Source: an uncultured Actinomycetes bacterium (GTDB lineage: Bacteria > Actinomycetota > CADDZG01 > JAHWKV01). Taken from it: DNA of 64,000 bases. Below, piece after piece: positions 2,168 to 37,590 of the stretch (within the stretch, counting starts at the first letter, position 1; every line of letters starts with the position of its first letter). The stretch is taken from NCBI GenBank assembly GCA_964501265.1, contig CAZCSK010000001.1, positions 86,314-150,313 on the forward strand, given 5' to 3'. The position numbers and the translations under genes were made by a program. The notes beneath the pieces are model-generated. The model was not told the origin of the DNA, searched no databases, and worked only from the letters and a program-made list of their open reading frames with translations.

Positions 2168-2316
2168 GACGAGATCAGAGCGCGCCAGCGTGAAGGCGCC
2201 TCGCGGAAGAACGTGCGTCAATAAACATTGCAACGAGAATACCATCGCTGCTTCGAACCAAGGGTGCGCTCCCCGGTGAATGGACCACAGCTTTCAGCCT
2301 TCTCATCAACGTTAGA

Positions 2317-10693: not shown

Positions 10694-11000
10694 TCCTTGG
10701 GGTGTGCGTTACTTCTGAGGAGCGGTTCCTTCTAAACATCTAGTGTTCCCCTTTCGTAGGAGACCAAAGTTATTGGACAAACGGTTTCTGCCCAGACATT
10801 ACCGAGCTCAAACAATTTTCCTTTGTGATTTGTCTTCGTGATTGCCTGACCCTAGTGGAAATTGTCGCTTTTTGTCAAGTTTGAGAAGTGCCCCCCGGCC
10901 AGCCTCGCTGCCTGCCCTATCCTCCCGAGGAAGTCCTCCGGCTGGTAGCCTCTTGATTTCCTCCCAATTTAGGCCAAATCGTAGGAGTAAGGGCAAGAAA

Positions 11001-12527: not shown

Positions 12528-12570
12528 GCTGACCCTTCCAATAGGCGCTGTTTCGGTCCGAGACGTCTCG

Positions 12571-13731: not shown

Positions 13732-13732
13732 A

Positions 13733-21878: not shown

Positions 21879-24186
21879 CGGGACCAACTTGAGAAACGCA
21901 ATTCGCAACTTCTTGTCCACACGGGGCTGGGAAACTGGGGGGGCGCTTGCATTCGCCTTGTTCGTTGCCTGGCCCCTTTTCCATCCTGGTCGGCTGGTAA
22001 CGGGTTTTGACACACTCACTTATTCGGTCCCCAATCACGCCGTTTCCATCGCGGCTCTGCGGGCGGGCCGTCTCCCGGCGTGGAACCCCTACATCTTTGG
22101 CGGGGCCCCTCACCTGGCTAACCCGCAGGTCGGGATCTTTTATCCACTCAAGTGGGCCTCGATCTTCGTCTCGCCTCATCGAGGACTTGTTCTACTGACC
22201 GGTCTGCATCTTCTCATTCTGGCACTCGGGATGGTCGTGCTCGTCGGAGGCGCTCTCAAGTTGCGACGGCCAGCCGCGTTGATTGCCGCAGTGATCGCTA
22301 CTGGCTCGGGAGTGGCTATGGCTCAGTCACTGCATTTCGAGCAGATCCTCACAATCGCTTGGGCCCCTTGGTTGCTGGCGGCGGTGGACGCCGCAGCTGC
22401 AGGAACGATCCGAATCCGCCGGGGAGTTGCGGCCGTAGCCTTAACTTGCGGACTCATGATTCTGGCCGGACACCAGCAACCCGCTTACGTGGTGCTCGTG
22501 CTGGCAGTTGCTTGGGCTTTGGCGCGGTGCATCGAGGTCAAATCAGTTACTCGTTTCCTCGGAGTGCTGGGCGGATTGCTGCTCGGGTTGGGCCTGGCTG
22601 CCGTTCAGCTTGTACCGACACTCGACCTTGTTAGTCGCTCGGTACGCGAGGGCGGACTCGCAATCAAAGGGCTCAGCGCCCCAGGCTACCTGCTCAATCT
22701 ACGCGACCTGCCGGCCGTACTCCTGGGCAACTCAGTTGCGCGTTCGATCATTAATGCTACCGGCGGCGTCGAAGCTAGCGCCTACATTGGCGCTGCAGGG
22801 TTTGTTCTCGTTCTCGTCGGTCTGATCGTGAGCATCAAGGTCGGGCGGCGAGTCTTGATCCTCACCCTCGCGGCGTCGGTGTTGGTCGCCACCATTTTGG
22901 CAGCAGGACCGGTCACGCCCTTCTTTCGCGCCGCCCACGCGGTCATTCCCGGCTTCTCGCTGTTTCGCGTTCCCGCACGCTGGGTGCTTGCGACAGACCT
23001 CGCACTCGCCGTCCTGGCCGGTTTCGGCGTTGACGCAATCGTGCAGAGGCATGTGCGGAGACGTGACGTCGTCGTCGTGCTGGCGGTCGGGGTGGTGATC
23101 GCGGTGCTCATCGGTGTGCGGGCTCTGCATCGCCCCTCGGGACCCGCAGTTATTGTTTGGCTGATCGCCGGAGGCACAATACTTGCGGGGGCTGCGATGG
23201 CGGGTCGCTTAGGCCGTCGACGGTTTGGGTTGGCGGTTCTCATACTTCTTCCCGTCCTCGAGCTTGGTGGCGCTGCGTCCCAGTCAACGCTTCCGAAACT
23301 CGCTCTCGACCTGCCGTTGCGCATTTATCCTCAGGCTGGAGATTCCGTGAAATTTCTTCAGGGGCATCCCGGGCGGACGCTTCCACTTGGGGGGGATCCC
23401 CAGGGCGCCCCCTTTTATAGCGCCGCTACATTGCGCCCCAACCTCAACGCGACGTACGGCGTCCGATCTCTCGATGGATACGATGGCGGCCCCCAAGTTT
23501 CGCGCCGTTGGGTACGCGCAATGGAGAGCCTGACCAAGCAGCCCTTTAACCCCGACCTCACTCTCAAGGCTCAGATGCCAGTCCCACTCGATGCCGAGAT
23601 GCTGGCCCGTTTCGGTGTGCGCTGGGCCCTTCTCGACACTGACATCAACCCCCCAAGTGTCGTCGTCCCAGGTTGGGGAGAGTCCGTTGCCCGTGAAGGA
23701 AACATTGGGGTGTGGGAAAACCCGCGGTACCAGGGGGAAGGATTTCTTTACGCGGCGACGAAGCCCCTAGGGAATCGCCCCGGTGAATCCCTCCGTGCTC
23801 TTGGGCTTGAAAGCAACTCGATCGCGCTTGTCGAGTCAGACGGCCCAGTCCTTGCCTGCTCCCTCGAGTGTGCAAGGTCTCCCGTCCCGGTAGGTCGTCC
23901 CCGGCCCGAGCGGATGACTGTCAATACCCAATCCGTTTCCCCCTCACTTCTGGTTGTGGCAGAACAGTGGGATCCGGGCTGGCGCGCCGAAGTGGACGGC
24001 AAGAAAGCGGTGGCGATACCGGTAGACGGATTCATGCTCGGGGTTTCGCTGCCCCCAGGCCATCACCGAATCAGACTCACATATCACGTCCCCGGCCTCG
24101 CGATTGGAACATCCCTGACGCTGCTTAGCTTGGCAATCACAACATTGCTGACGGTGAAGAGGCGCGCCGTTAACGCGTCGTTATGA
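21808..24186 (+). CDS. Large polytopic membrane protein, YfhO/GT-C-like (putative extracytoplasmic glycosyltransferase)
   Basis: ~13 predicted TM helices and an N-terminal region resembling YfhO-family proteins (…PAWNPYIFGGAPHLANPQVGIFYPL…), plus a large C-terminal extracytoplasmic domain. The true start may be TTG 21889, because the ORF-track start overlaps SpoIID by 70 nt. Confidence 0.55.
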   Translation: MERLQSRVDCLPTKQLGPAWEPPSGTNLRNAIRNFLSTRGWETGGALAFALFVAWPLFHPGRLVTGFDTLTYSVPNHAVSIAALRAGRLPAWNPYIFGGAPHLANPQVGIFYPLKWASIFVSPHRGLVLLTGLHLLILALGMVVLVGGALKLRRPAALIAAVIATGSGVAMAQSLHFEQILTIAWAPWLLAAVDAAAAGTIRIRRGVAAVALTCGLMILAGHQQPAYVVLVLAVAWALARCIEVKSVTRFLGVLGGLLLGLGLAAVQLVPTLDLVSRSVREGGLAIKGLSAPGYLLNLRDLPAVLLGNSVARSIINATGGVEASAYIGAAGFVLVLVGLIVSIKVGRRVLILTLAASVLVATILAAGPVTPFFRAAHAVIPGFSLFRVPARWVLATDLALAVLAGFGVDAIVQRHVRRRDVVVVLAVGVVIAVLIGVRALHRPSGPAVIVWLIAGGTILAGAAMAGRLGRRRFGLAVLILLPVLELGGAASQSTLPKLALDLPLRIYPQAGDSVKFLQGHPGRTLPLGGDPQGAPFYSAATLRPNLNATYGVRSLDGYDGGPQVSRRWVRAMESLTKQPFNPDLTLKAQMPVPLDAEMLARFGVRWALLDTDINPPSVVVPGWGESVAREGNIGVWENPRYQGEGFLYAATKPLGNRPGESLRALGLESNSIALVESDGPVLACSLECARSPVPVGRPRPERMTVNTQSVSPSLLVVAEQWDPGWRAEVDGKKAVAIPVDGFMLGVSLPPGHHRIRLTYHVPGLAIGTSLTLLSLAITTLLTVKRRAVNASL

Positions 24187-26059
24187 CCGCCCGGGCAACA
24201 TCCAGGCCCACCCATGTGCTTGATTGCGGCAGTCCAGGGGCATTACCGAACGTCCAGATCCTCCCGATGGAATCAAGCACCCAACCTCCTCCTCCGTCTG
24301 AGGTAAGAGCCAGTCCGCGCGCAGTGTCTTGGCCGGGTGCGTAGTAATTCGGAGACATCGATGGGGCTCCACCAAAGGAGTGAAGTCCACCCCAGCCGTC
24401 GAGCACGTACCCACTAATGCCATCTGGGCGCAAAGCGATCGCTCTTGCAATATCAAATCCGAAATAGGGAACGCCCAGTACCTTGGAAGCGACCCCCAGC
24501 GGGTGGACCCCGCCAAAGCCATCTAGGACGTAGCCGGCCGTGCCTGATGCATTCACAGCAATTCCCCGGGCGATATCCCACCCCCAATAAGGGCCACCAC
24601 GAGGAAGGGCGGCGCCACCGAATGGGTGAACACCTCCGTAGGCGTCAAGAACGTAGCCTGTCCCATTCGCCGGACCTTTAGCGGCCCCTCGCACTATGTC
24701 CCACCCGGCCCAATAGGAGTTCCCGGAGATCGGCAACGCGTCGCCATAAGGATGTAACCCGCCATATCCGTCAACGACATACCCGCCGCTGCTCGACCCG
24801 ATTGCGGCGCGCGCAATCGGCCACTTTGCCCAGTAGGAAGAGTGAGTCACCGCCGCTTGGCGCCCGGCGGGGTGCAGCCCTCCGTAACCGTCAAGCGTCA
24901 AGAGGCCCGGCCCGCTCGCTGCGGGGGTCCAACCGGGCAACGGGTGTGGCGGCGTGGAAAACACTTCCGACTGCACGTCGATACGCAGCTGGGGGATTAA
25001 GGGATAAGCGCGATCCCCTGGGCAGGCGGTTGCCGACACGTCTCGATGCCCACTGATCACGTCGAGCGTCACGTTCGTACCCGCTGGATAGCGCGTTGAC
25101 CCGCCGCTCACCGCCTGAATCTGAGCGCGTGAGTCGACTGTGTGATGGGTGAGTTTCCAGGCAAGTAGAGAACGCAACGCGGAACGAGAGGCGACCGGAA
25201 CCGGCACTGGCCCGTGCTCGCCAATCAAAGCGACACCTGTACTGCCGGTGTTGAACCCCCCGGAGTGCGCACCGATTACAGGTTTGGTCGTGCCTCCGAA
25301 CCGGCCCTCGTACACTCGGCCGAACCGATCGATAAGAAAGTTGTAACCGATGTCGCACCACCCGTTGCCAAGAACGTGGTAACGGTAGATGGCGCGCACA
25401 ATCGCCGGGGCCTCTTCTGCTGTGTAAGTGTTGGCGTTGACCGTGTGATGAACGAACGAATTCCTTAGTGAGCCAGCGTATTCGGGGGTTCCACAACCAG
25501 AGTTGGACGTGCGCAGGCTTTCATCGGCCCCCCATTCGGCGCGCGAGATTATCCCTGGCTGAGCAGGGGTCGCCGTCGCCGGAGAAATAGTGAACGGGCG
25601 AGGCTGCGAAACCTCCGAATGAATTAGATGCATCTTCAGCTGCGCGAGCGATCCCTCGGTGACTCGCACGTCCAGCGCGTCGACTCCACGCCCGATCCAG
25701 GTTGGGCCCGCCGATGTGGTGGCGCGATTCTCCATCGAACTCGGGTCCGGGCCTTCGTCGGGGTTGCCGTAAAGCTCGGTCCAGGGGGACCACCCGTCTC
25801 CTCTTCTAAGACGAATCTCCACTGCGCCCTCCACGTGGCCTTGCCACTCGAACCCAACGACTTCCGCCGGCTTGCTTAGCGACAGGAAACGGCGGTATCC
25901 GGGAGATGCTTCTTGAAGTGAACCGGACGCCAGGTCAACGATCCGGCTTTCCACGCGGGGCGGCCTCTGCTGCGGCGCGACCAAACCAGCCGATACCAAC
26001 GACAAAGCCACTACCAGCGGAGGCAGCCTTAAGGACCATCGATTCATGTGTGAAGACAC
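24170..26059 (-). CDS. N-acetylmuramoyl-L-alanine amidase (Amidase_2/PGRP domain) with C-terminal 'LDGxGGxHP…DIAR' repeats (~6x)
   Basis: Signal peptide; Amidase_2 motifs …FVHHTVNANTYTAEEAPAIVRAIYRYHVLGNGWCDIGYNFLIDRFGRVYEGR… The C-terminal ~255 aa are repeats, e.g. GYVLDGFGGVHPLGVASKVLGVPYFGFDIARAIAL. Confidence 0.8.
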   Translation of the reverse strand: MSSHMNRWSLRLPPLVVALSLVSAGLVAPQQRPPRVESRIVDLASGSLQEASPGYRRFLSLSKPAEVVGFEWQGHVEGAVEIRLRRGDGWSPWTELYGNPDEGPDPSSMENRATTSAGPTWIGRGVDALDVRVTEGSLAQLKMHLIHSEVSQPRPFTISPATATPAQPGIISRAEWGADESLRTSNSGCGTPEYAGSLRNSFVHHTVNANTYTAEEAPAIVRAIYRYHVLGNGWCDIGYNFLIDRFGRVYEGRFGGTTKPVIGAHSGGFNTGSTGVALIGEHGPVPVPVASRSALRSLLAWKLTHHTVDSRAQIQAVSGGSTRYPAGTNVTLDVISGHRDVSATACPGDRAYPLIPQLRIDVQSEVFSTPPHPLPGWTPAASGPGLLTLDGYGGLHPAGRQAAVTHSSYWAKWPIARAAIGSSSGGYVVDGYGGLHPYGDALPISGNSYWAGWDIVRGAAKGPANGTGYVLDAYGGVHPFGGAALPRGGPYWGWDIARGIAVNASGTAGYVLDGFGGVHPLGVASKVLGVPYFGFDIARAIALRPDGISGYVLDGWGGLHSFGGAPSMSPNYYAPGQDTARGLALTSDGGGGWVLDSIGRIWTFGNAPGLPQSSTWVGLDVARAVITTR

Positions 26060-26105: not shown

Positions 26106-26684
26106 TTACGGCAGCGGTCGCAGGCCCTTTAGATCGTCTATCTGTTCGTAGCTGCGGCCACACGAACAGGAAAGCTCCGCAGGCAACGTTAGCCCGCACT
26201 CGCATACCCATCCTACCCTGCGAGCGGGATTGCCGACCGTGACAGCGTGCGCAGGAACGGATCTCGTAACCGTTGCCCCTGCCCCTACGAACGCGTGCTC
26301 TCCAATGATCACTCCGCAGACGATGGTCGCATTGGCTCCTATCGTTGCACCGCGCCTCACGAGAGTCGGCGAAAACTCGTCGGGGGACTTCTTGAAGGCC
26401 GCACGCGGGTTGAGGTCGTTCGTGAACACCGCGTGAGGGCCGACGAACACGTCATCCTCTATCGTCACCTTGTCGCAGATCATGATGTAGTTCTTGATCG
26501 TGACACGGTCTCCCACGACGGCTCCGCTTTCGATGAAAGCATGCCCGCAGATGTTGCAGTCCGCTCCGACGTGCGCTCCTTGCATAATCTGGGCAAAAGC
26601 CCAAACTCGCGTCCTTGGACCGACATTTACCGATTCGCACAGGGCTTTGTCGTGCACGAATACGGATGGGTCGGGCAAAGTCAA
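26106..26684 (-). CDS. Left-handed beta-helix (hexapeptide) sugar N-acetyltransferase, WbpD/PglD-like
   Basis: Hexapeptide repeats (…IGANATIVCGVIIGEHAFVGAGATV…) with a C-terminal Cys cluster (CECG…CSCG). Translationally coupled to the upstream DegT gene. Confidence 0.75.
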   Translation of the reverse strand: MTLPDPSVFVHDKALCESVNVGPRTRVWAFAQIMQGAHVGADCNICGHAFIESGAVVGDRVTIKNYIMICDKVTIEDDVFVGPHAVFTNDLNPRAAFKKSPDEFSPTLVRRGATIGANATIVCGVIIGEHAFVGAGATVTRSVPAHAVTVGNPARRVGWVCECGLTLPAELSCSCGRSYEQIDDLKGLRPLP

Positions 26685-27787
26685 CGGACCGCCTTTCTTA
26701 GGGCGTCGGCCACCCGCTGCTGCTGTTCGGGCAAGATCTCGGGAAAGAGGGGAAGTGACAGGATCTGGCTCGCGGCCTCTTCGGCGACGGGAAAGTCGCC
26801 TTCTTCGTGGCCGAGACTCTTGAATGCCCCTTGAAGATGAATAGGCACGGGGTAGTGGATTCCCGCTCCGATATCTTGCTCATGAAGCTTCTCAAGAACA
26901 CGGTCACGGTCCGGCACTCGCACTACATAGAGATGCCAGATGTGCTCGTTACCACCGACAACTGATGGCAGGGTCACCTCATCTAAATCTTCGAGAAGCT
27001 CTTCATACTTAGCAGCTGCCACGCGCCGTGCCGCATTCCCGTCTGCGAGCCGCCGCAGCTTCGCACTAAGAACCACTGCCTGAAGGGTGTCGAGACGCGA
27101 GTTATAACCCTCCTGGGGATGCAGGTATTTGACTTCACTTCCGTAGTTTCTAAGAGCCCGTACCTTCGCGGCAACGTCGTCGGAGTTGGTGATGACCGCT
27201 CCAGCGTCGCCGTAAGCCCCTAAGTTTTTGCCTGGGTAAAAGCTAGTTCCGGCTGAGATACCAAATGCGCCCGCGCCAACACCGTTTCGGACAGCGCCCT
27301 GAGCTTGCGCCGCGTCCTCGATGATCAGAACCTGGTCGGAGGCGATCGTTGCGAGATCCTCCATCGGCGCCATCTGCCCGTATAGGTGGACAGGCATGAT
27401 CGCTCTCGTTTGCGGCGTCATCTTCCTCGCCACGTCATCCGAGTCGAGAAGATAGTCATGGGTCACGTCGACGAGGACGGGCCGCGCTCCGGCCCGCATC
27501 ACGGCAAGGGCGCTCGCCACGAAAGAGTTTGTCGGGACAATCACTTCGTCGCCCATGCCAATCCCCGAAGCGCGCAACGCGAGTTCGAGTGCATCCGTTC
27601 CGTTGGCAACACCGATGCAATGCTTGACTCCCGAGAAACTCGCAAACTCAGCCTCGAACTTACCGACTTCCTCGCCGAGGATGAAGGCGGTCCGATCTAA
27701 AACCTTCTCCCAACCGACCGCGACTTCCTTTTCGATCGCTCGATGCTGGGCCCGCAGATCAACGAGAGGAATCGGCGCGTCACTCAA
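26681..27787 (-). CDS. DegT/DnrJ/EryC1/StrS-family PLP-dependent sugar aminotransferase (WbpE-like)
   Basis: 368 aa. The PLP-lysine region …SFYPGKNLGAYGDAGAV… and overall pattern are typical of nucleotide-sugar 3-/4-aminotransferases. Confidence 0.85.
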   Translation of the reverse strand: MSDAPIPLVDLRAQHRAIEKEVAVGWEKVLDRTAFILGEEVGKFEAEFASFSGVKHCIGVANGTDALELALRASGIGMGDEVIVPTNSFVASALAVMRAGARPVLVDVTHDYLLDSDDVARKMTPQTRAIMPVHLYGQMAPMEDLATIASDQVLIIEDAAQAQGAVRNGVGAGAFGISAGTSFYPGKNLGAYGDAGAVITNSDDVAAKVRALRNYGSEVKYLHPQEGYNSRLDTLQAVVLSAKLRRLADGNAARRVAAAKYEELLEDLDEVTLPSVVGGNEHIWHLYVVRVPDRDRVLEKLHEQDIGAGIHYPVPIHLQGAFKSLGHEEGDFPVAEEAASQILSLPLFPEILPEQQQRVADALRKAVR

Positions 27788-28810
27788 TCAAATCACCTGC
27801 TCTTCGCGGCCGCCGCCGCGCGCCGACCTTTCTATCGCTTCTAGCACCCGAACGACAGCAAGCCCTTCACGGCCGCCTGTCAAGGGCTGCTTCCCGAACT
27901 CCACGCACTCGAGGAAGTGATCGCACTCAGCCTGCAGAGGTTCTCCCAACGCGACCTTCGGGATCGTGATGTCGCCCTCTCGAACGCTCGCGCGAAATGA
28001 CGCAAAAGTGTCGACGTAGCTCGGGACTATACGATCTTCCGCCACACCCTTGTCGTATATGCGAAGCGGTTCGCTCAAGTTCATATCGTCGAGGGTCAGC
28101 ATGCGTCTTTCTCCGACGACGGTAATGTCGCGGGCCTTGCGCGGGTTCAACCAGGACGCATGAAGGTTGACGAGAACTTCGTCGGGATACCGGAGCGTGA
28201 TGAACAGGGCGTCTTCTATTCCTTTGTTGATCCAGTTGCCCCCGATAGCCGACGCACTAAGCGGACCCGAGTTGAGCCAGTAGTTCGCGATCGAGACGTC
28301 GTGCGACGCGAGGTCCCAGGCAGCGCTAACGTCGACCCTGATTGGCCCCAAATTGGTCCGGACCATTGATACGTAATAGACATTGCCTAGATCCCCTTCG
28401 TCGAGGAACCTCTTGACGGCTTGAACACCCGCGTTATAAACGAACACGTGCCCGACCATCAGGATCAGCTTGTTCCGTTCGGCCACCGCACAAAGATCTT
28501 CGGCGTGTGCCGTGCTGTTGGTGATCGGTTTTTCCACAAGAACGTTCTTTCCAGATTCAAGCGCACTCTTCGCCAACTCATAGTGCGTGCTGGTGGGCGT
28601 CGCCACGACAACCGCTGTTACGCTCTCGTCGTCAAGGGCAGAAGAAGCATCTGTTCCCACCTGGATTTCGGGGAACCGAGCCGCCACCTGATCGAGACGA
28701 GTTCGATCGGTATCGATCACCCAAGCGACGCTGCTCTTCGGAGGATTGTGGAAGTTGCGGATCAGGTTCGGCCCCCAATGGCCCGCGCCGATCATGGCTA
28801 GTTTGATCAC
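27788..28810 (-). CDS. Gfo/Idh/MocA-family NAD-dependent sugar oxidoreductase (WbpB-like)
   Basis: MIKLAMIGAGHWGPNLIRNF… N-terminal Rossmann fold, …EKPITNS… motif and a C-terminal alpha/beta domain. Confidence 0.8.
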   Translation of the reverse strand: MIKLAMIGAGHWGPNLIRNFHNPPKSSVAWVIDTDRTRLDQVAARFPEIQVGTDASSALDDESVTAVVVATPTSTHYELAKSALESGKNVLVEKPITNSTAHAEDLCAVAERNKLILMVGHVFVYNAGVQAVKRFLDEGDLGNVYYVSMVRTNLGPIRVDVSAAWDLASHDVSIANYWLNSGPLSASAIGGNWINKGIEDALFITLRYPDEVLVNLHASWLNPRKARDITVVGERRMLTLDDMNLSEPLRIYDKGVAEDRIVPSYVDTFASFRASVREGDITIPKVALGEPLQAECDHFLECVEFGKQPLTGGREGLAVVRVLEAIERSARGGGREEQVI

Positions 28811-28833: not shown

Positions 28834-29556
28834 TCAACGCTTTATTCTTAAGCCCACGTACACGAGCGGGCGCAGTATCGACCACCACCCCACAATCGGC
28901 TTCATCTTGGTCTGGCCGAGATGCTTGGGCGGGTAGATCTTGGTGACCGGCGCCTCTGCGGTCCGGTAGCCCAACTTGATTACCTTCAAGTACAGGTAGG
29001 GCTCCAACTCATACTCGTCCAGCCAACTTTGCGCCAGGTCGATGCGAGCATCTTTAAAGACCGACATCCGGATCGCGCGGAATCCGTTTGTGGAATCGGT
29101 CACGCGGCGACGTGCAACAAGGGAGAAAAGTAGAGGGTGAAGACGCGTGGCCAACTTGCGGTAGGCAGGCATAGGACCCAAGTTCAGTTCTTCCTTTAGA
29201 AAACGTGACCCTTGCACGAAGTCTGCACGGTCGGATGCGATGGGTTCAAGAAGATCGGGGATCTCCTGCGGTTCGTCCTTGTTGTTCCCTGCCATGACCA
29301 CCGCAACGTCGTACCCCCTTTCGAGACCGTATTGATATCCGCGCCGCAACGCTGCGCCGACTCCGACGGTTTTGCCCAGTTCCAGAACGGTCGCACCTCC
29401 GGCTCTGGCAACTTCCGCTGAGCGGTCGGTTGATCCGTCGTCCACCACCAGCAGTTCGTCGACGACGTCGCGTGGAGTACGACGGACGACTTCTCCGATC
29501 TTTTCCTGCTCGTCGAGAACTGGAACGATTGCCAACACCCTCAGCCCTTTATACAC
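28834..29556 (-). CDS. GT2 glycosyltransferase, polyprenyl-phosphate sugar synthase-like (Dpm1-like)
   Basis: …RVLAIVPVLDEQEKIGEVV…LVVDDGSTDRS… Small GT2 (240 aa), GTG start at 29556. Divergent from a GT-C-like membrane gene. Confidence 0.75.
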   Translation of the reverse strand: MYKGLRVLAIVPVLDEQEKIGEVVRRTPRDVVDELLVVDDGSTDRSAEVARAGGATVLELGKTVGVGAALRRGYQYGLERGYDVAVVMAGNNKDEPQEIPDLLEPIASDRADFVQGSRFLKEELNLGPMPAYRKLATRLHPLLFSLVARRRVTDSTNGFRAIRMSVFKDARIDLAQSWLDEYELEPYLYLKVIKLGYRTAEAPVTKIYPPKHLGQTKMKPIVGWWSILRPLVYVGLRIKR

Positions 29557-29589: not shown

Positions 29590-29616
29590 CTCAACGGACG
29601 GTAGATTAGCGCCGTG
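29590..29616 (+). promoter_or_regulatory. Putative leaderless-type promoter: -10 TAGATT, 6-nt spacer, GTG start codon
   Basis: cggTAGATTagcgccGTG read directly. The same arrangement and flanking sequence recur at 35803-35829. Confidence 0.4.
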
Positions 29617-31239
29617 GAGACAAGCTCCAAGAAGGGGTTCGGGATGTCAGACATCGGCATCAGAATACCGGATGCAGACAGGCACCGGCGCAAGATCGTC
29701 GCCGGGTTCTTCGCGCTACTGCTACTTCTCGGGGTTGCGATCTTCAACGACTTCGGAGTCTCCTGGGACGAGCCGGATTACTATCGCTACGGCCACCTCG
29801 TTCTGGATTTCTTCACCGGTGGGGGTCGGCAGTTCGAGACTTTTCTGAACCTCAGGCTCTACGGACCGGTCGTCCCAGTGGTCCAGGCAATCGTCGCAAA
29901 TGTGTTTGATCTCTCGCCCGGACAAGCCTTTCCCGGGGCTCACCTGGTTAACTACATCATCTTCTTGGCCGGGGCAGTTGCCTTCTACCACCTGTGCCTT
30001 CTGCAATTCGAAAGCTGGAGATGGGCACTTTTGGCTACTGCGATGCTCTTCTTGTCGCCTCGCATCTTCTCGCACGCATTCGTCAATCCAAAAGACGGAC
30101 CCTTTCTTGCCCTGTTTACGATCAACATCTACTTGCTGGTTCTCTTCCTCGAGAAACGCAAACTATTCCTCATTCCTCTGCTTGGCCTAACCACTGCGCT
30201 TCTAATCGATATTCGAGTAGCAGGGTTCCTAATTCCGGCCCTCGTGACGGTTGCGCTCGCGGCCGACGCGCTCACTGCGTCCGGTCGCCGTTTCCTGAAA
30301 TCGCTCTTGCCTCATCTCGGCCTCTACTTACTCGTGGTGGTCCCGACGGCGTTGGCGTTGTGGCCGTTTCTCTGGCCCAACCCGATTGGCCGGTTGGGCG
30401 AGTCGATGAGTTTGATGAGCAACTTCGTAGGGGGCCCCGTCGTCGCCGTTTACATGGGAATGGCACACGAGACGACCAGCCTGCCCTGGCATTACCTGCC
30501 GGTCTGGATTGGGATCACCACGCCCCCTGCTTACCTGGTGCTGGCTTCGGTCGGCCTTGTCTCGGGCTTGTGGCGAAATCCCATCGCGGCCTTTCGGACA
30601 CATTCGAAGGACCGTCATTTCTTCCTGTACGCGGCCTGGCTCCTTGCGGTTCCCTTGGCCATCATTGTCAGCGGAGCAAATCTTTACGACGAGTGGCGTC
30701 AGGTTAATTTCATCTATCCCGCGATGCTGATATTTGCCATCGCCGGTGCGAGATCGATCTACCTGCGTCTTGGCCGACAGAGGAACGTTGGACATCTTTT
30801 GCGCGTCGGGTTTGCGGCGGGCCTGGTAATCGTTATGGCATCCGTGGGGGTTCGCATGATTTCGCTGCACCCCTACGAGGCTCTCTACTTCAACTCACTC
30901 GCAAGGGGAGGAGATCGCGTGGAGAACAATTTCGAACTCGACTACTGGGGCATCTCATACAAGGAAGGACTCTCCTACCTGCTATCGCATTATCCTGGAC
31001 AACTCAAGGTTTATGGCTGCACAGCTCCTGCGGCCCACAACTCAATCTTGTTCGAAGATCGCGCGCGGCTCGAGTTCGTTTCGAAAGAAGATGCCGAATT
31101 CGGGCTGTGCGCCCCTCGGGAGTATTTCCTCGGATATGGGGGGGGCCGGGATGTGTATCTTTCGGAGTATCCGACGCTTTACAGCGTCGAGCGCGACGGA
31201 GCGACGTTCCTCTACGTGAAGGATCTAAGGGGCGCCTGA
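29614..31239 (+). CDS. Polytopic membrane protein, GT-C fold, GT39/ArnT/PMT-like (putative polyprenyl-P-sugar dependent glycosyltransferase)
   Basis: METSSKKGFGMSDIG…; ~11 TM helices and an acidic first extracytoplasmic loop (…VSWDEPDYY…) reminiscent of GT-C DE/DD motifs. Confidence 0.55.
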   Translation: METSSKKGFGMSDIGIRIPDADRHRRKIVAGFFALLLLLGVAIFNDFGVSWDEPDYYRYGHLVLDFFTGGGRQFETFLNLRLYGPVVPVVQAIVANVFDLSPGQAFPGAHLVNYIIFLAGAVAFYHLCLLQFESWRWALLATAMLFLSPRIFSHAFVNPKDGPFLALFTINIYLLVLFLEKRKLFLIPLLGLTTALLIDIRVAGFLIPALVTVALAADALTASGRRFLKSLLPHLGLYLLVVVPTALALWPFLWPNPIGRLGESMSLMSNFVGGPVVAVYMGMAHETTSLPWHYLPVWIGITTPPAYLVLASVGLVSGLWRNPIAAFRTHSKDRHFFLYAAWLLAVPLAIIVSGANLYDEWRQVNFIYPAMLIFAIAGARSIYLRLGRQRNVGHLLRVGFAAGLVIVMASVGVRMISLHPYEALYFNSLARGGDRVENNFELDYWGISYKEGLSYLLSHYPGQLKVYGCTAPAAHNSILFEDRARLEFVSKEDAEFGLCAPREYFLGYGGGRDVYLSEYPTLYSVERDGATFLYVKDLRGA

Positions 31240-31267: not shown

Positions 31268-33316
31268 TCATGTTGAGCGCCCTGTCTCCCGTTTGAATCG
31301 ATGCGCGAACCGCTTAAGGAACCGCTCGTACGGGAGTAGAAGGATGAGGCCCCCGAGGGCCGACAGAACGCGGGCTACCCTAACTTGCCACGGGAGCTCG
31401 TACGTCACCTGGAGAAGATGGCTTCCTGTGGGAACCCGCACGAGCATCTGGTCGAATTCGTCGGGCCGAGTTGCCAGTGGGCGGCCATCAAGAGAGGCCG
31501 TCCAGTACGGCGATTCGATCACCCGAACAAGAATAGTGGCCCGCACCTTTGCATCGATCCGCGCCGCGAACGACTTGGCACCTGAAGAGAGCAAAGTTAC
31601 TTCGGCTGAGTCGATTGCAACGATCCTTCCGGGTTTCGCCGGCAGAAACCGGAAAACGGCCAGGTCGTCGAATCGCGCCTGCTGACTGAACAAGTTAGGG
31701 AGCCGAGACATCACCTGGAACGGTAGACGGTTGCCCTCTGCAACAATCTCGGCCGCGCCCACAGTCTCGAGGTAGCCGGCAAGACGATTCGCCGCTGCAT
31801 CCAACGTCATCACGTCCGCCCAAGAGATCCCAAAGATAGACCTGTGATCGAAGTCGTTGGCAAAGTCTCGTACCGTATCGGCCCCTGGGCCGTACATCAG
31901 ATAGGCCTGCATCGGGCTCGGATGAGTCGACGTTCCTCCGATGAACTCTCGCTCAGCGAAGACACCGGTGAGCCCGAAGATGTGCGTAGCGCCGCTTCCG
32001 TACGTCGAACTCGTGAACACCACACGTCCGGAATGACCCGCAAGATATGCCCATAGATGCCCGACGGCTCCCTCTTTTGGACCTTCCAGTCGCAGAGCAA
32101 ATCTCTCCTCAGGGCCTAGCACCGAATGCTCCGCCACTATCCATCCCAATCCCAGTAACCCAACGAGGATGGGAGACAGAGCGCGCGTCCAGCGCAGACG
32201 AGGCAATGCCTCGATCCACAACACCGACATCACCGCGAACCAGAAGAAGATGTCGTCGAGGACTCGGTAAGGGTCGAAGTACGAGATGCGGAGGGGGCCC
32301 GCGATCAACATCATGAATGCCACCAGGAGAAGGAGCGGACCCGCCGCTTTGAACAAGACGAACCGTGGATCTTTCAAGCGGCCTCGCGCCAGTAGAAATC
32401 CCCCCGCAACCGCTGCGCAAATAAGCCACCAATCCCAGCCCCGGCTGTGTGGTGGATTCAAGAGAGATTGGAGCAGGTTCTTGCCCCACAGAAACGGGAT
32501 GGTCTCCCGGCGCATCAGTAGGAGTCCGGCCCACCAGACTCCGGCGAGAAACACGCCAGCTGCAAGTCCCGTCCATGCGCGAATTACGCCGCCCTTGCGA
32601 TCGCGGTTCAGCCCCCAAGCAGCCGCCGCAGCTACGACGAGGGTCGCTGGAAAGTGATACGGGTGACTCAGGATTAACGCCACTGCCGACGTCGCCAGTG
32701 TCAAGGTCCACAGACCGCGCCTTGCGGTCGCGCCCGAGGCTATCTTGGCGAACGCAACTACAACCACGGGCGCGATCGCCAGAGAAAGCCTCGAGCCGAG
32801 CGTGCCGTACCCGGCCCCGACAACCGTCCCTGACACGCCGAAGGCCATGTAGCCCGCAACAACTCCGGCAAGGGCCGCCACGTGCGGACGGACGTTAAGG
32901 AAAATGAGCGACAGCGTCACGGTAAGAGCCGGAGCGAGATAGACGATAACGACGAGGAGCCAATAGGCTCGCTCGTCATTTAGACCCAAGACCAGTCCGA
33001 GAGCCCCTCCTAGCAACGACGGCCCCGGCGGATAGAACTGAAGGTCGGGGTAGCCGCCGAAGATCTCCTGCACCCAACCAAATGGGTCCCTGCCGTCCAC
33101 GATCATCTGTCGTGCGTTGATCATCCGCGCAAGCCGGTCGGGATGGTCCGAAAGAGCAAAGGCCCCTTCAGACAGCAGCCCCTTCGCGGCTAGAAGCATT
33201 ACAGCCAGCGGCACGAAAACCCAGACGGACGCCCACAGGCGTCGGCGCAGGTGATGGTTCAAGATCTCTTCAGGCCCTGAGCGCTCCTTTGGCCCTCGTC
33301 TTTCACTGCAACGCAC
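31268..33316 (-). CDS. Large polytopic membrane protein with C-terminal extracytoplasmic domain (GT-C-like / polymerase-like), function unknown
   Basis: 682-aa ORF with >10 hydrophobic helices in the N-terminal 400 aa and a soluble C-terminal ~250 aa. Start uncertain; the ORF-track start overlaps the upstream gene by 58 nt. Confidence 0.5.
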   Translation of the reverse strand: MRCSERRGPKERSGPEEILNHHLRRRLWASVWVFVPLAVMLLAAKGLLSEGAFALSDHPDRLARMINARQMIVDGRDPFGWVQEIFGGYPDLQFYPPGPSLLGGALGLVLGLNDERAYWLLVVIVYLAPALTVTLSLIFLNVRPHVAALAGVVAGYMAFGVSGTVVGAGYGTLGSRLSLAIAPVVVVAFAKIASGATARRGLWTLTLATSAVALILSHPYHFPATLVVAAAAAWGLNRDRKGGVIRAWTGLAAGVFLAGVWWAGLLLMRRETIPFLWGKNLLQSLLNPPHSRGWDWWLICAAVAGGFLLARGRLKDPRFVLFKAAGPLLLLVAFMMLIAGPLRISYFDPYRVLDDIFFWFAVMSVLWIEALPRLRWTRALSPILVGLLGLGWIVAEHSVLGPEERFALRLEGPKEGAVGHLWAYLAGHSGRVVFTSSTYGSGATHIFGLTGVFAEREFIGGTSTHPSPMQAYLMYGPGADTVRDFANDFDHRSIFGISWADVMTLDAAANRLAGYLETVGAAEIVAEGNRLPFQVMSRLPNLFSQQARFDDLAVFRFLPAKPGRIVAIDSAEVTLLSSGAKSFAARIDAKVRATILVRVIESPYWTASLDGRPLATRPDEFDQMLVRVPTGSHLLQVTYELPWQVRVARVLSALGGLILLLPYERFLKRFAHRFKRETGRST

Positions 33317-34785
33317 AGGATCGAAGTCCCCACCGGAAGCGACACGAGCGCTATGAGGACGCGCTCCAAACGCGTGAGAACAAGCGCGGCGCGGTCGAGA
33401 AACGGCGATGACTTATCGAGACCGAGCTTGCTGCGTGCATCACCGGGCCGCCGCCTGCTCGCCCATACGAATGGCGTGAGCCAGCTGAATATGTGGCTGA
33501 TAAACAGAACGCGGAACCCGCTCTCGGCAAGTTCTCGACGCAAGCTATTTTTGCTGTAACGGCGGTGATGACCGAGAAGTTCATCGGCCGAGCTCCAAAG
33601 CCATTGATGAGCAGGAACGGTGACTATCAAGCGACCGCCGGGCTCGAGGATGCGACGAGCTTCTCGCAAAACCTCGTCCGGATTTTCGACGTGCTCTATA
33701 ACGTCGAGAAGGCATGCATTTGAGATGAACCCATCGGGAATGGCGACGCGGTGGATGTCGCCGACAAATCCCGACAGCGCGTGCCTGTCGCGCGCACGCT
33801 TGGCAAGTTCGTGCGATCCCTCAACGATAAAAAGGTGCTCTGGGGGCCAACCAAGCATGGCGGTCACTCCACCCGCACCTGCGCCAAGGTCCACGAGCCA
33901 AGAAGATCCTTTGCCCCAACGTCTCAGAGCCCAGGAGACGAAGGCCGCCTTGCTTCGGAACCACCAGTGGCGAGCGTCGGCGTCCATCAGCGCCTCGGCA
34001 TTTGCTGCGTCAAAGATTCCATCCGCTTGGGGGATCGGTGGATTCTGCTTTCGCAACGCCCTCACCCTTAGCGCGATTCTTGGAATAGCCAAGACCATGT
34101 TCATACCGTCTCTAAAGACGCGCACACGGGATCTTTCGTCGTGACGCCAGGAGATGGCGATCTCTTCTACACCGATGTCGAGAGCGCGCGCGAGGGCGAC
34201 AATTTCTACATCCCATGCGAAGCCGACTTCGGTTGAGGCAGGGAGGATCTTTTTCCACGTCTGCGTTGAGGCAGCCTTGGCTCCACACTGAGTGTCGACG
34301 ATCCCGGGCGTCAACACGAGCTGCACGAGACGGTTGTAGGCGCGCCCAAGAAGTTCCCGCATTCGATTCTCATGGCGAAGCAATTCGGAGCCAGCGAGAT
34401 CCCTCGATCCGATGACCAACTCATGACCCCTTTGTGCTGCCTTCAGAATGACTTCGAGGTCGTGGAGCGGCGTGGCCAGGTCGACATCACAAAATCCGGC
34501 GAGATCGGTCCGCGCGCTCAACAACCCGGCAGTGATCGCGGCGCCTTTGCCGTAGTGCCCTGCGCGGATTAGACGGCCCGGTACATGAAGGTTGTTGAGC
34601 AGAAACTTCTCGACGCGCTGCGAGGTTTCATCGGCGCTGCCGTCGTCCACAAAAATTAGCTCACTACCCTCGGGCATCGAGACGATGAATGCGGCGAGTT
34701 CCTCTGCAGACTCTTCGAACCGCTCTTCTTCGTTAAATAGGGGAACCACTAGCGAAACGGTCTTCACAACACGCGAGCCAGTCAT
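33259..34785 (-). CDS. Bifunctional GT2 glycosyltransferase (N-terminal, Dpm1-like) / class I SAM methyltransferase (C-terminal) fusion
   Basis: N-terminus VSLVVPLFNEEERFEES…IFVDDGSADET…; C-terminus …LVDLGAGAGGVTAML… followed by …ILEPGGRLIVTVP…. Confidence 0.7.
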   Translation of the reverse strand: MTGSRVVKTVSLVVPLFNEEERFEESAEELAAFIVSMPEGSELIFVDDGSADETSQRVEKFLLNNLHVPGRLIRAGHYGKGAAITAGLLSARTDLAGFCDVDLATPLHDLEVILKAAQRGHELVIGSRDLAGSELLRHENRMRELLGRAYNRLVQLVLTPGIVDTQCGAKAASTQTWKKILPASTEVGFAWDVEIVALARALDIGVEEIAISWRHDERSRVRVFRDGMNMVLAIPRIALRVRALRKQNPPIPQADGIFDAANAEALMDADARHWWFRSKAAFVSWALRRWGKGSSWLVDLGAGAGGVTAMLGWPPEHLFIVEGSHELAKRARDRHALSGFVGDIHRVAIPDGFISNACLLDVIEHVENPDEVLREARRILEPGGRLIVTVPAHQWLWSSADELLGHHRRYSKNSLRRELAESGFRVLFISHIFSWLTPFVWASRRRPGDARSKLGLDKSSPFLDRAALVLTRLERVLIALVSLPVGTSILCVAVKDEGQRSAQGLKRS

Positions 34786-35802: not shown

Positions 35803-35829
35803 CCCGGTGAGCGGTAGATTGAGACCGTG
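35803..35829 (+). promoter_or_regulatory. Second copy of the TAGATT-N6-GTG leaderless-type promoter
   Basis: gcggTAGATTgagaccGTG. The flanking ~60 nt are conserved with 29560-29616. Confidence 0.4.
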
Positions 35830-37590
35830 GAGACAGCCTCGAAGGACGAGATATCCGCCGCCTCTGTGGCAGACACCGGATCTCGCGAACGCGATAGCGC
35901 GGCGCGCGTCACGCTTGTACTCGTTCTCTTCCTCGCCGTAGCCGTTTACGCAACGTGGCCGCTTTCCCGGTACATGGGTAGCAGGGTACCCCAAAATCTT
36001 TTTGACTCTCTTGAAAACGCGTGGATCTTCGGGTGGAACGCGCACGCCTTTACAACCAACCCCCTCAAGATATTCAACGCGAATATCTTCTATCCAGAAC
36101 CGCTGACCCTAGCCTACGCGGAGAACCTGCTGGGCGTTTCCGTCTTCGTCGCGCCGATCTTCTGGCTGACTAAAAACGCGCTTCTGACCGCCAACATCGC
36201 CTACCTGCTCATGTACGCGGTGGCCGGGCTTGGCGTATACCTCCTTGTGAGGGAACTAGGCGGATCGCGCGTGGGTTCTTTTCTTGCAGGTTTCGCCTTT
36301 TCGGTGGCACCTTACCGGCTCATTCAAATAGCCCATCCACACGTGGTTGCAATTCACCTTGTCCCTTTCATCCTCCTGCTGTTGATCCGGCTTCGGCGTT
36401 CGCGTTCGAGATGGGTTCTAGTGGGGATAGCTCTTCTCGTCGCACTCCAGATGTGGTCTTCCATTACTGGCGGTTTGATCATGCTTATTGCAATCACCGG
36501 CTTCGGGATTTGGGAAGTCATCCGACTCCGGACGAGATCGCTACCGGTGGTTGGACGAGCTGCTGCCTCTGTCATCGTGGGCTTGGTTCTGGCGATCCCT
36601 GTGGCTCTTCCCTACATCGAGGTCCGCAAGCTTCACCCGGAGTTCCAGCACTCACCTGGCGAGATATTTACCTTCTCCGCGCTCCCTTCTTCCTACCTGT
36701 CTCCGGCCGAGGGACGGGGTCCGCTTGTCCGGTCATCGAACGATTGGCTAGACAAGCGATTCCGAGCCCGCGATGGGTTCTGGGAAAAAACGCTTTTCCC
36801 CGGTTACTGGCTGGGGGGTGCATTCCTGCTAACTCTTGCGCTCCTTGGCGTCGCGCTGGTGAGAAGGCGAAAGGCACCCTGGATAGAGCCGGCGGCGCTA
36901 TTCCTGTTCATCGCAACGATTGGGTTCGTGGCTAGCCTCGGCCCTCGCTACGGAGGGCCGAGCGGGATTAGGCTCCCATTTAGCCTGGTGTCAGATCTCA
37001 TTCCCGGGGGTTTCGTGCGCGTGCCGGCCAGATTCGGAACCGTCACTCTCCTCGGAATGTCGATTGCCGCGGGAGTAGTTCTCGGGGGGATCAGATCGCG
37101 TCCCGCCCGCGCGCTCATAGCAGTCTCAGGACTCTTCCTACTTCTCGAGGCCGCGCCATCCCCCTTTCCAATGATCGAGCCCCCTCCTCTTAGTAGGGCG
37201 CTCCAGCAGGTCCCCCGCTCCGGCGCAGTATTGGCGCTTCCCACAACCCAGGTGAACGAGAAGGGTAACGTGGTCGAGGGGAGCATCTTCCAGGATACGC
37301 GCAACCTCTACCTCTCCACCGGCAATTTCGCCCCGATGGTCAACGGATACGGGGCATTCCATCCTCAAACTTACTGGGAGGTCATGTCCGCCGTGCAGGA
37401 CTTCCCGAGCGCCGTCGGCATGCAGAGGTTGCAGGTGGTCGGTGTCAAGACAGTGGTGATTCAGACGGAGAGGATCAAAGGAACTCCCTGGAGTGAAGTG
37501 GTAGAGCGGCTGGAAGCATGGAAGGGAGTGCGCAGAATCGCTTCGGGCGAGCAGATCGTCGTCTTCGACATTTCGATGGCGAGTGACTAA
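35827..37590 (+). CDS. Polytopic membrane protein (putative GT-C-like glycosyltransferase/polymerase); N-terminal 7 aa and 5' region paralogous to gene 29614
   Basis: METASKDE…; ~12 TM helices and extracytoplasmic loops. Conserved upstream cassette. Confidence 0.55.
   Translation: METASKDEISAASVADTGSRERDSAARVTLVLVLFLAVAVYATWPLSRYMGSRVPQNLFDSLENAWIFGWNAHAFTTNPLKIFNANIFYPEPLTLAYAENLLGVSVFVAPIFWLTKNALLTANIAYLLMYAVAGLGVYLLVRELGGSRVGSFLAGFAFSVAPYRLIQIAHPHVVAIHLVPFILLLLIRLRRSRSRWVLVGIALLVALQMWSSITGGLIMLIAITGFGIWEVIRLRTRSLPVVGRAAASVIVGLVLAIPVALPYIEVRKLHPEFQHSPGEIFTFSALPSSYLSPAEGRGPLVRSSNDWLDKRFRARDGFWEKTLFPGYWLGGAFLLTLALLGVALVRRRKAPWIEPAALFLFIATIGFVASLGPRYGGPSGIRLPFSLVSDLIPGGFVRVPARFGTVTLLGMSIAAGVVLGGIRSRPARALIAVSGLFLLLEAAPSPFPMIEPPPLSRALQQVPRSGAVLALPTTQVNEKGNVVEGSIFQDTRNLYLSTGNFAPMVNGYGAFHPQTYWEVMSAVQDFPSAVGMQRLQVVGVKTVVIQTERIKGTPWSEVVERLEAWKGVRRIASGEQIVVFDISMASD

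Follow-up and report, generated by a model that had tools for sequence, protein, structure and literature searches.

A four-gene cassette with a predicted 3-acetamido sugar line and a putative polyprenyl-phosphate glycosyltransferase in a wall-glycopolymer locus of an uncultured actinomycete

In this work we have examined a group of four genes on the minus strand of a 64-kb stretch of DNA (64,000 nucleotides, referred to below as the window) from an uncultured Actinomycetes bacterium. The group consists of a gene for a small glycosyltransferase of family GT2, followed by a triad which encodes a Gfo/Idh/MocA oxidoreductase, a DegT aminotransferase and a hexapeptide N-acetyltransferase, and it is considered here as a candidate cassette for the supply of an activated sugar. 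The cassette genes and the gene that follows them are listed below (NAD, nicotinamide adenine dinucleotide; PLP, pyridoxal 5'-phosphate; UDP-GlcNAc, uridine diphosphate N-acetylglucosamine; NDP, nucleoside diphosphate).

28834..29556, minus strand: GT2 glycosyltransferase, cassette gene 1, 240 residues (Pfam Glycos_transf_2, E 3e-12)
27788..28810, minus strand: Gfo/Idh/MocA NAD-dependent oxidoreductase, predicted UDP-GlcNAc 3-dehydrogenase, 340 residues (Pfam GFO_IDH_MocA N and C domains, E 5e-26)
26681..27787, minus strand: DegT-family PLP-dependent aminotransferase, predicted NDP-3-keto-sugar 3-aminotransferase, 368 residues (Pfam DegT_DnrJ_EryC1, E 4e-106)
26106..26684, minus strand: left-handed beta-helix (LbH) N-acetyltransferase, predicted 3-amino-sugar N-acetyltransferase, 192 residues, with a four-cysteine C-terminal tail (Pfam Hexapep, E 3.5e-22)
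24170..26059, minus strand: secreted PGRP-type amidase with a C-terminal repeat domain (Pfam Amidase_2)

An earlier note on this DNA had described the triad as tightly coupled, in the order oxidoreductase, aminotransferase, acetyltransferase, and as preceded by a GT2, and the list of open reading frames (ORFs), the Pfam matches and the junction sequences all agree with that description. Inspection of the sequence showed that the GT2 and oxidoreductase genes are separated by a 23-nt spacer carrying GAGTAGGA, which resembles a ribosome-binding site, that the TGA of the oxidoreductase abuts the TTG start of the aminotransferase with a gap of 0 nt, and that the stop of the aminotransferase and the start of the acetyltransferase share a TTGA overlap. 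The same ORF boundaries were reproduced by an independent gene caller on an identical public contig (Logan SRR6868923). The acetyltransferase stop is followed after 46 nt, with no terminator-like site in between, by the Amidase_2 gene, which is possibly co-transcribed downstream of the cassette; the linkage of these two is not kept in other loci. A promoter and terminator scan gave no signal exceeding shuffled expectation.

Chance does not explain the arrangement of the triad: among 80 related loci drawn from many phyla, most have the three genes adjacent or nearly so. The order GT2, oxidoreductase, aminotransferase and, in part of the loci, acetyltransferase is kept in the closest relatives (57-73% identity), which belong to Myxococcota, an Acidobacteriota metagenome-assembled genome (MAG), Actinomycetota (locus L016) and unclassified MAGs, and it is also found in an Acidimicrobiales MAG (L082), in L083 and in Myxococcaceae. 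In at least 14 loci the gene immediately before that of the oxidoreductase encodes a GT2 orthologue 66-73% identical to the window protein, and in two archaeal MAGs the triad is followed by a GT2 which is 41-42% identical to that protein. The GT2 is more than an upstream neighbour; it has been conserved with the triad as the fourth gene of the unit. The Myxococcaceae loci have rmlBDAC before the cassette and Wzt/Wzm after it; rmlBDAC is immediately upstream in L085 and L086, both from this family, and close by in L002. All of the thousands of database relatives of the cassette genes bear generic names. Two shorter variants were also seen. The variant in L083 (7179-11305) has the GT2, oxidoreductase and aminotransferase genes without an acetyltransferase, followed by genes for a PIG-V-like protein and two paralogues of a 587-residue membrane protein which in the window lies at 35827. 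The loci from Thermoanaerobaculia (L007-L013, L017 and L019), in which no acetyltransferase was detected, combine the oxidoreductase and aminotransferase with a 41% identical GT2 that keeps the D...Q pair (AGDNQD) of the metal motif discussed below.

What chemistry does the triad carry out? In PDB searches the best matches of the aminotransferase, all of them enzymes that aminate sugars at C-3, were QdtB (4e-95), 7b0d (2e-93), DesV (2oga, 1e-88), 5u1z (8e-83) and WbpE (5e-72, residues 6-351). The 4-aminotransferases were much weaker, with perosamine synthase at 3e-55 and ArnB at 1e-41, and NtdA matched at 3e-49. The NCBIfam list for this protein is headed by the PseC model at 214 bits, far under its cut-off of 423, which we take to mean that NCBIfam has no model fitting the 3-aminotransferases. 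The acetyltransferase matched 4mzu (5e-48), an enzyme of the Fuc3NAc pathway, WlbB (3mqg, 4e-43, residues 10-170) and 7s43 (2e-41), deposited as an N-acetyltransferase and presumably from Helicobacter pullorum. The earlier note had named closest homology to 4-amino-sugar enzymes as a result that would overturn a 3-amino pathway; since both proteins are nearest to enzymes specific for C-3, that objection falls away. The PLP-lysine motif SFYPGK (K187) and DAAQA (D158) of the aminotransferase and the LbH motifs of the acetyltransferase are present, and the catalytic motifs of all three triad proteins are intact. The triad is thus very probably a line of 3-oxidation, 3-amination and 3-N-acetylation that leads to a 3-acetamido sugar. 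Acetyltransferases of the cassette type end in a conserved four-cysteine motif, CxC-x10-CxCGR (26106-26200 in the window), which is possibly a zinc knuckle. In the homologues found next to WbpA-like genes in Bacteroidota the hairpin is kept but the cysteines are missing, and none is seen in the aligned segment of WlbB.

The oxidoreductase has as its top NCBIfam model NF040723, archaeal UDP-GlcNAc 3-dehydrogenase (E 7e-49, model positions 1-252 of 302), with 167 bits against an equivalog cut-off of 450. Its PDB matches are 3c1a (4e-26), 6nor (8e-22) and 7bvj (7.5e-19), of which the last is GnnA, a UDP-GlcNAc 3-dehydrogenase, and 6nor is an entry which we take to be GenD2, a sugar 3''-dehydrogenase. 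GenD2 is a characterised enzyme of that activity whose partner enzymes are needed to pull its reaction. The Rossmann motif GxGxxG (GAGHWG, 8-13), EKP (93-95) and D166...H170 are intact. No chain deposited under the name WbpB or WlbA was among the 60 best PDB matches, and 3q2k, which we assume to be WlbA of B. pertussis, matched at 2.6e-10 only, compared with 7.5e-19 for GnnA. Judged by these matches, the oxidoreductase is neither of the WbpB/WlbA type nor an orthologue of WbpB, and it shares its clade with GnnA and with the archaeal UDP-GlcNAc 3-dehydrogenase. The earlier view of the triad as WbpB/WbpE/WbpD-like therefore holds in part: the aminotransferase and acetyltransferase group with WbpE and WlbB, whereas the oxidoreductase is of the GnnA/archaeal type. 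We had also considered the likeness to GnnA as a sign of a non-uronic product and dropped this, as the oxidoreductase of the Bacteroidota MAG locus L046, which is linked to a WbpA-like gene, shares those PDB neighbours; the resemblance therefore marks a broad clade and not a product. A comparison of specificity residues between cassette-type enzymes and those in WbpA context gave dozens of clade-specific differences and no interpretable loss of a basic residue.

The question whether the product is uronic was approached through gene content. All fetched loci were searched with three probes, the WbpA-like gene of L046, where it lies directly upstream of a distant oxidoreductase homologue, and WecB and WecC of E. 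coli. The whole 64-kb window holds neither a WbpA-like 6-dehydrogenase (UDPG_MGDP_dh family) nor a WecB-like 2-epimerase (Epimerase_2 family), which extends the earlier remark that no WbpA-like gene is adjacent, and neither was found within 8 kb of the oxidoreductase in any of about 30 loci in which that enzyme is at least 51% identical to ours. A WbpA-like gene does occur, mostly immediately upstream, in about 25 of about 50 loci with an oxidoreductase 30-40% identical. This comparison agrees with the non-uronic product suggested earlier, and gene content is the basis on which that suggestion now stands. We consider UDP-GlcNAc as the substrate, together with a non-uronic product, to have somewhat better than an even chance.

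The fourth protein, the GT2, belongs to a small subfamily: an exhaustive search returned more than 22,000 GT2 matches, among which 137 clusters have E values of up to 1e-30. Its best NCBIfam models are AglJ, PpgS and a transferase forming dolichyl-phosphate (Dol-P) hexose, all with scores below the curated cut-offs, and in the PDB only DPMS (Dol-P-Man synthase) and three ArnC entries match it with E below 1e-4, ahead of lower-scoring matches of the GpgS type. In PfDPMS, R117, R131 and S135 hold the acceptor phosphate and the A-loop carries R202...K208 (PMC5526996). The equivalents of the first three in our protein are R118 (present in 141 of 150 relatives), R133 (133 of 150) and T137, and its A-loop K211-HLGQT-K217 aligns with REFGESK of ArnC and RIAGDTK of the GtrB homologue YfdH (motif [RK]xxGx[ST]K). 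In DPMS, GtrB and ArnC the donor diphosphate is held by a metal whose ligands are the second Asp and the Gln of a DxDxQ motif; the first Asp of this motif has been proposed as the base (PMC5526996; bioRxiv 10.1101/2025.01.29.634835). At the two ligand positions the 150 closest GT2 representatives have Asn and Lys in 83 cases and Asp and Gln in 45, whereas the mixed pairs Asp/Lys and Asn/Gln do not occur at all, and AGN(N/D)K is invariant in GT2s of the cassette clade. Because the pair covaries perfectly, the switch argues for a maintained, re-engineered active site and not for decay. The simplest reading is that Lys93 would take the place of the divalent cation at the donor diphosphate and that the enzyme would be metal-independent. 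We do not file this GT2 as a canonical polyprenyl-phosphate glycosyltransferase, because a defining motif is missing, but it most probably works like one, and we think it fairly probable that it transfers its sugar to a lipid phosphate.

If the sugar is loaded on a lipid, an enzyme of the GT-C fold would be expected to use it outside the membrane, and several large membrane proteins with multiple transmembrane (TM) segments are encoded near the cassette, together with methyltransferase genes (SAM, S-adenosylmethionine).

35827..37590, plus strand: membrane protein, about 11 TM segments, 587 residues, PTPS_related/PMT_2 kin, candidate GT-C user of the cassette's lipid-linked sugar
29614..31239, plus strand: GT-C glycosyltransferase (ArnT/PMT-like), divergent from the cassette, 541 residues, identified from a fold model
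33259..34785, minus strand: fusion of a GT2 with a SAM methyltransferase, 508 residues
34782..35723, minus strand: separate methyltransferase (MT313), with a homologue in L090
31268-33316, minus strand: large multi-TM protein without a family match, 682 residues
21808-24186, plus strand: large multi-TM protein, 792 residues, with a YfhO match at the C-terminal 60 residues only

Multi-TM proteins of 500-770 residues are encoded beside the cassette in nearly every locus, and GT-C genes adjoin it in at least six loci besides the window. By Pfam these neighbours are PMT_2 proteins in L016, L020 and L023, an AglB/STT3-like protein in L014, and PIG-V-like and PTPS_related proteins in L083; the other membrane neighbours are a protein with TM and TPR segments in L001, a 7TM_transglut protein, which is not a GT-C, in L003, and proteins without a Pfam family in L025 and L006. 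In L014 (10744-13050, an unclassified bacterial MAG) the homologue of the AglB/STT3-like oligosaccharyltransferase stands directly after the cassette, which hints that in some lineages the cassette sugar could enter protein glycosylation. The 541-residue neighbour gave a good AlphaFold2 model (predicted local distance difference test, pLDDT, 90.5), for which the top Foldseek match was ArnT, followed by STT3, ALG9/12, AftA, PglB and Pmt4, while a PDB search with its sequence returned nothing. In its family D52 is invariant and E53 nearly invariant after TM1, and the homologues carry PMT_2 or PMT domains. For the 587-residue protein, profile-profile comparison with the PMT_2-type GT-C family gave a probability of 94% and E 1.4e-7, and the Pfam match to PTPS_related was weak; its single-sequence AlphaFold model had a pLDDT of 44 and was not used. 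The 682- and 792-residue proteins may be further GT-C-like enzymes.

Which of these is the partner of the cassette? The 541-residue enzyme is the adjacent one, but its candidacy was weakened by L090, where a 52% homologue is flanked by homologues of MT313 and of the GT2-methyltransferase fusion and no cassette is present; its 33-35% homologues are also unlinked to the cassette. In L082 (Acidimicrobiales) and L083 the immediate neighbours of the cassette include homologues of the 587-residue protein with 41-51% identity. As L090 groups the 541-residue enzyme with methyltransferase genes while L082 and L083 put the 587-residue protein beside the cassette, we read the region as two interleaved modules and regard the 587-residue protein as the more likely partner, on the basis of two independent loci. 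The second module, in which the PMT_2-type GT-C of 541 residues, the GT2-methyltransferase fusion and the methyltransferase are kept together at 51-54% identity in L090, suggests a system for a lipid-linked methylated sugar donor that was inserted between the cassette and the gene of the 587-residue protein.

The cassette is embedded in 35 kb of a wall-glycopolymer locus, whose genes encode a polyprenyl-phosphate-type GT2, Wzm, Wzt with a Wzt_C domain, a methyltransferase, further glycosyltransferases (GT1, GT2 and GT4), an LCP ligase and the four large multi-TM proteins. Further features are the following.

11739-14590: Wzm, then Wzt with the C-terminal carbohydrate-binding domain Wzt_C, then a methyltransferase
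636-2293, minus strand: rmlC-like and rmlB-like genes at the left window edge, the rmlB-like protein scoring 313 bits against a cut-off of 365 for dTDP-glucose 4,6-dehydratase (dTDP, deoxythymidine diphosphate)
2317-6393, minus strand: giant secreted protein of 1358 residues, upstream of the glycan genes, in which Ig/cadherin-like and Calx-beta domains are joined to a penicillin-amidase domain
6474-10739, minus strand: giant secreted Calx-beta protein of 1421 residues, also upstream of the glycan genes

The layout of Wzm, Wzt with Wzt_C and methyltransferase is typical of ABC-transporter-dependent glycans, in which the chain end is capped and recognised before export. The earlier note had assumed a Gram-positive host, and this is reasonable, as the named best relatives of a housekeeping acyl-CoA carboxyltransferase in the window are all Actinomycetota MAGs (75-83% identity). 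Four secreted proteins of the locus have in common a repeat of about 41 residues (core GYVLDGYGGLHPFG) which no Pfam family matches and which may be a wall-polymer-binding module; there are five copies in the amidase (24170-26059, minus strand), four in a SpoIID-like protein (19134-21878, plus strand), three in the Calx-beta protein (6474-10739, minus strand) and two in a CarboxypepD_reg protein (38931-40757, plus strand). Two plus-strand ORFs, a GT2 at 14587-15930 and a GT1 at 15537-17474, overlap by about 390 nt, and the true start of the latter is probably further downstream than 15537.

We hypothesize that the four genes form a donor-supply cassette for extracytoplasmic glycosylation whose plan is that of the Arn pathway with the chemistry shifted to C-3 of GlcNAc; for the whole chain as set out here we see an even chance. 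The Gfo/Idh/MocA enzyme would oxidise the 3-hydroxyl of UDP-GlcNAc using NAD+, the DegT enzyme would transaminate the 3-keto sugar to UDP-GlcNAc3N, and the hexapeptide enzyme would N-acetylate it with acetyl-CoA to UDP-2,3-diacetamido-2,3-dideoxyglucose (UDP-GlcNAc3NAc). This last step plausibly pulls the unfavourable oxidation and transamination forward, an effect which has been demonstrated for GenD2/GenS2/GenN. Since the GT2 is part of the cassette and resembles enzymes of the polyprenyl-phosphate type, the product would be a lipid-linked donor and not only a nucleotide sugar: the GT2 would load the sugar on polyprenyl phosphate to give polyprenyl-P-GlcNAc3NAc, probably without a divalent cation and with Lys93 in the metal's place, because both metal ligands are replaced (Asp to Asn and Gln to Lys). 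The lipid-linked sugar would then be flipped and attached outside the membrane by a GT-C, either the 587-residue protein or another of the four GT-C-like proteins of the locus, and the final acceptor may be a wall glycopolymer exported by Wzm/Wzt and attached by the LCP ligase, or a surface protein. That the triad acts on the sugar only after its transfer to the lipid, in the manner of ArnD or NaxD, was judged unlikely; all three proteins are homologues of nucleotide-sugar enzymes and have no membrane segments.

Several of our observations tell against this proposal, and they are best weighed beside the readings which they would favour. As our view is of 64 kb, a 6-dehydrogenase could be encoded elsewhere in the genome; the match of the oxidoreductase to NF040723 is far under the equivalog cut-off; and, as a control, the WbpA-associated enzyme of L046 has the same PDB neighbours (3c1a at 5e-26, 6nor, and GnnA at 3e-15). 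Could the triad be part of the classical Wbp/Wlb pathway, which provides UDP-GlcNAc3NAcA (possibly UDP-ManNAc3NAcA) for a polymer like teichuronic acid, if its 6-dehydrogenase and 2-epimerase genes lay beyond the window, or if C-6 were oxidised late? Oxidation of C-6 after the three steps has been proposed for Methanococcus. The homology of the aminotransferase and acetyltransferase to WbpE and WlbB is clear, a related oxidoreductase clade adjoins WbpA-like genes, and actinomycete teichuronic acids contain uronic diacetamido sugars made by such a gene set. We nevertheless find this reading very doubtful in view of the 6-dehydrogenase and 2-epimerase genes missing from the window and from the surroundings of some 30 close relatives, of a compact four-gene cassette that moves between phyla without them, and of the distance of the oxidoreductase from 3q2k, the putative WlbA. 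Is it possible, on the other hand, that the product is a 3-acetamido-3-deoxy sugar without the 2-acetamido group? This could be UDP-3-acetamido-3-deoxyglucose (N-acetylkanosamine), made by enzymes like RifL/RifK or NtdC/NtdA, or dTDP-Qui3NAc or dTDP-Fuc3NAc, 3-acetamido-3,6-dideoxyhexoses for which the rml genes would provide the precursor. For both the aminotransferase and the acetyltransferase, the closest solved relatives have dTDP-6-deoxy sugars as substrates (QdtB, DesV, 5u1z, 4mzu and 7s43 all work on dTDP-3-amino-3,6-dideoxy sugars), NtdA is among the aminotransferase matches, a wide range of sugars is oxidised at C-3 by Gfo/Idh/MocA enzymes, and rml genes occur both in the window (rmlC and rmlB) and right next to the cassette in Myxococcaceae (rmlBDAC). 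However, the routes to dTDP-3-amino-3,6-dideoxyhexoses run through a cupin 3,4-ketoisomerase instead of a Gfo/Idh/MocA dehydrogenase. No cupin ketoisomerase of the FdtA/QdtA type was detected beside the triad in Pfam and NCBIfam scans of window ORFs of at least 180 residues, and translational coupling ties the dehydrogenase to the aminotransferase. As only 3 of about 30 close loci have rml genes along with the cassette, and as the best profile of the dehydrogenase is that of a UDP-GlcNAc 3-dehydrogenase, we consider such a sugar unlikely.

The remaining points concern the lipid-linked part of the proposal. The GT2 has no DxDxQ motif, with A89-G90-N91-N92-K93 where DPMS, GtrB and ArnC have DADLQ, and the Asp proposed as catalytic base is lost along with it; nor does it have TM helices, as it ends after an amphipathic segment where ArnC and YfdH have two C-terminal TM helices. 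A protein so altered could have a different activity. Polyprenyl-phosphate glycosyltransferases without TM helices do exist, among them human DPM1 and PpgS. The GT-C partner is ambiguous, the adjacent enzyme travelling with a different module in L090, and there is no flippase candidate of the GtrA, SMR or MATE type in the window and no small multi-TM ORF outside the long genes. It may be, then, that the sugar pathway runs as proposed while the GT2 is an ordinary cytoplasmic glycosyltransferase which adds the sugar directly to a lipid-diphosphate-linked glycan, or an altered or non-transferase protein, with neither a lipid-monophosphate donor nor a GT-C step. GT2 family scores that all stay under the curated cut-offs, a cassette without a GT-C neighbour in L003 and membrane neighbours without a Pfam family in L025 and L006 would fit such a view. 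It is more difficult to reconcile with the fact that the PDB matches better than about 1e-4 and the NCBIfam matches better than about 1e-17 are all polyprenyl-phosphate glycosyltransferases, with the conservation of R118, R133, T137 and the A-loop lysines K211 and K217, with the perfect covariation of the Asn/Lys switch and with the GT-C genes that flank the cassette in most loci examined, and we rate it as improbable.

Our preferred reading, a cassette that supplies lipid-linked GlcNAc3NAc, can be compared with several known systems. The Wbp/Wlb pathways (P. aeruginosa WbpA/B/E/D/I, Bordetella WlbA/C/B/D, Streptomyces utrD/A/B/J/H) have in common with the cassette an NAD-dependent oxidation, a PLP-dependent transamination and an N-acetylation with acetyl-CoA at C-3. 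The cassette differs from them in its lack of a 6-dehydrogenase and a 2-epimerase and in an oxidoreductase from another Gfo/Idh/MocA subgroup, and it has a GT2 of the polyprenyl-phosphate type, which the Wbp and utr clusters do not. The nearest characterised relatives of the oxidoreductase, in GnnA/GnnB (GlcN3N of lipid A) and in Methanococcus MMP0352/MMP0351/MMP0350, act on UDP-GlcNAc and not on a uronic acid, and MMP0350 supplies the third step of N-acetylation as the cassette acetyltransferase would. However, the product of GnnA and GnnB goes into lipid A acylation, neither an acetyltransferase nor a GT2 is partnered with these two, and the archaeal product ends as a uronic acid in an N-glycan. 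The Arn pathway (ArnA/B/C/D/E-F/T, L-Ara4N) resembles the cassette in the sequence of dehydrogenase, DegT aminotransferase, N-acyl transfer, a GT2 that loads undecaprenyl phosphate and an outer GT-C; in sequence the cassette GT2 is homologous to ArnC, and in fold the 541-residue neighbour is like ArnT. The differences are considerable: oxidation here would take place at C-3 of GlcNAc, whereas in Arn it occurs at C-4 of glucuronic acid with decarboxylation, the acyl group would be acetyl and not formyl, no deacylase or ArnE/F-like flippase was seen here, the GT2 lacks TM helices and DxDxQ, and the actinomycete host has no lipid A. In three-component systems (GtrA/GtrB/Gtr*, CsbB/GtcA/YfhO, GacI-L, PpgS/Rv3779, C. 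youngae ORF12/14/15) a GT2 synthase likewise makes a lipid-monophosphate sugar with which a GT-C decorates a separately made polymer, here one of the ABC-transporter type. Those systems use common sugars of the nucleotide pool, whereas the cassette synthase is operon-linked to a dedicated three-enzyme sugar line; it is also a DxD-less variant, and the cassette has no identifiable flippase.

Both the chemistry of the three enzymes (in Pseudomonas, Bordetella, Methanococcus and Streptomyces) and three-component glycosylation are already known. In a search of the literature we found no description of such a sugar line operon-fused to a lipid-phosphate synthase, or of the DxD-less synthase subfamily. 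The earlier note regarded 2,3-diacetamido sugars as uncommon in the wall polymers of Gram-positive bacteria, which goes too far where the uronic forms are concerned. In Streptomyces, teichuronic acids consist of GlcNAc3NAcA and ManNAc3NAcA and come with a complete Wbp-like set of genes that includes the 6-dehydrogenase, and uronic diacetamido sugars are also a component of a secondary wall polymer of Geobacillus; our literature search found no report of a non-uronic 2,3-diacetamido sugar in a Gram-positive wall. It is tempting to generalise, and we offer the following only tentatively, as somewhat less likely to be right than wrong: the cassette may be a so far unrecognised and widely transferred module of Actinomycetota, Myxococcota, Acidobacteriota and some Archaea in which metal-independent Asn/Lys GT2s make polyprenyl-P-2,3-diacetamido-2,3-dideoxyglucose, a lipid-linked donor that would be new, for diverse GT-Cs, including an STT3/AglB-like one, that decorate wall polymers, O-antigens or proteins on the outer side of the membrane.

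If our proposal is true, a rare non-uronic 2,3-diacetamido hexose carried as a lipid-monophosphate donor would extend the short list of sugars that are added outside the membrane by GT-C enzymes, and it would explain thousands of generically annotated metagenomic genes. The GT2 subfamily would be a natural experiment on how a polyprenyl-phosphate transferase of the GT-A fold dispenses with its metal. Work on the umbrella toxins of Streptomyces has shown that surface sugars of the uronic form are antigenic and act as receptor determinants, and the cassette would be a plausible horizontally exchanged determinant of cell-surface identity.

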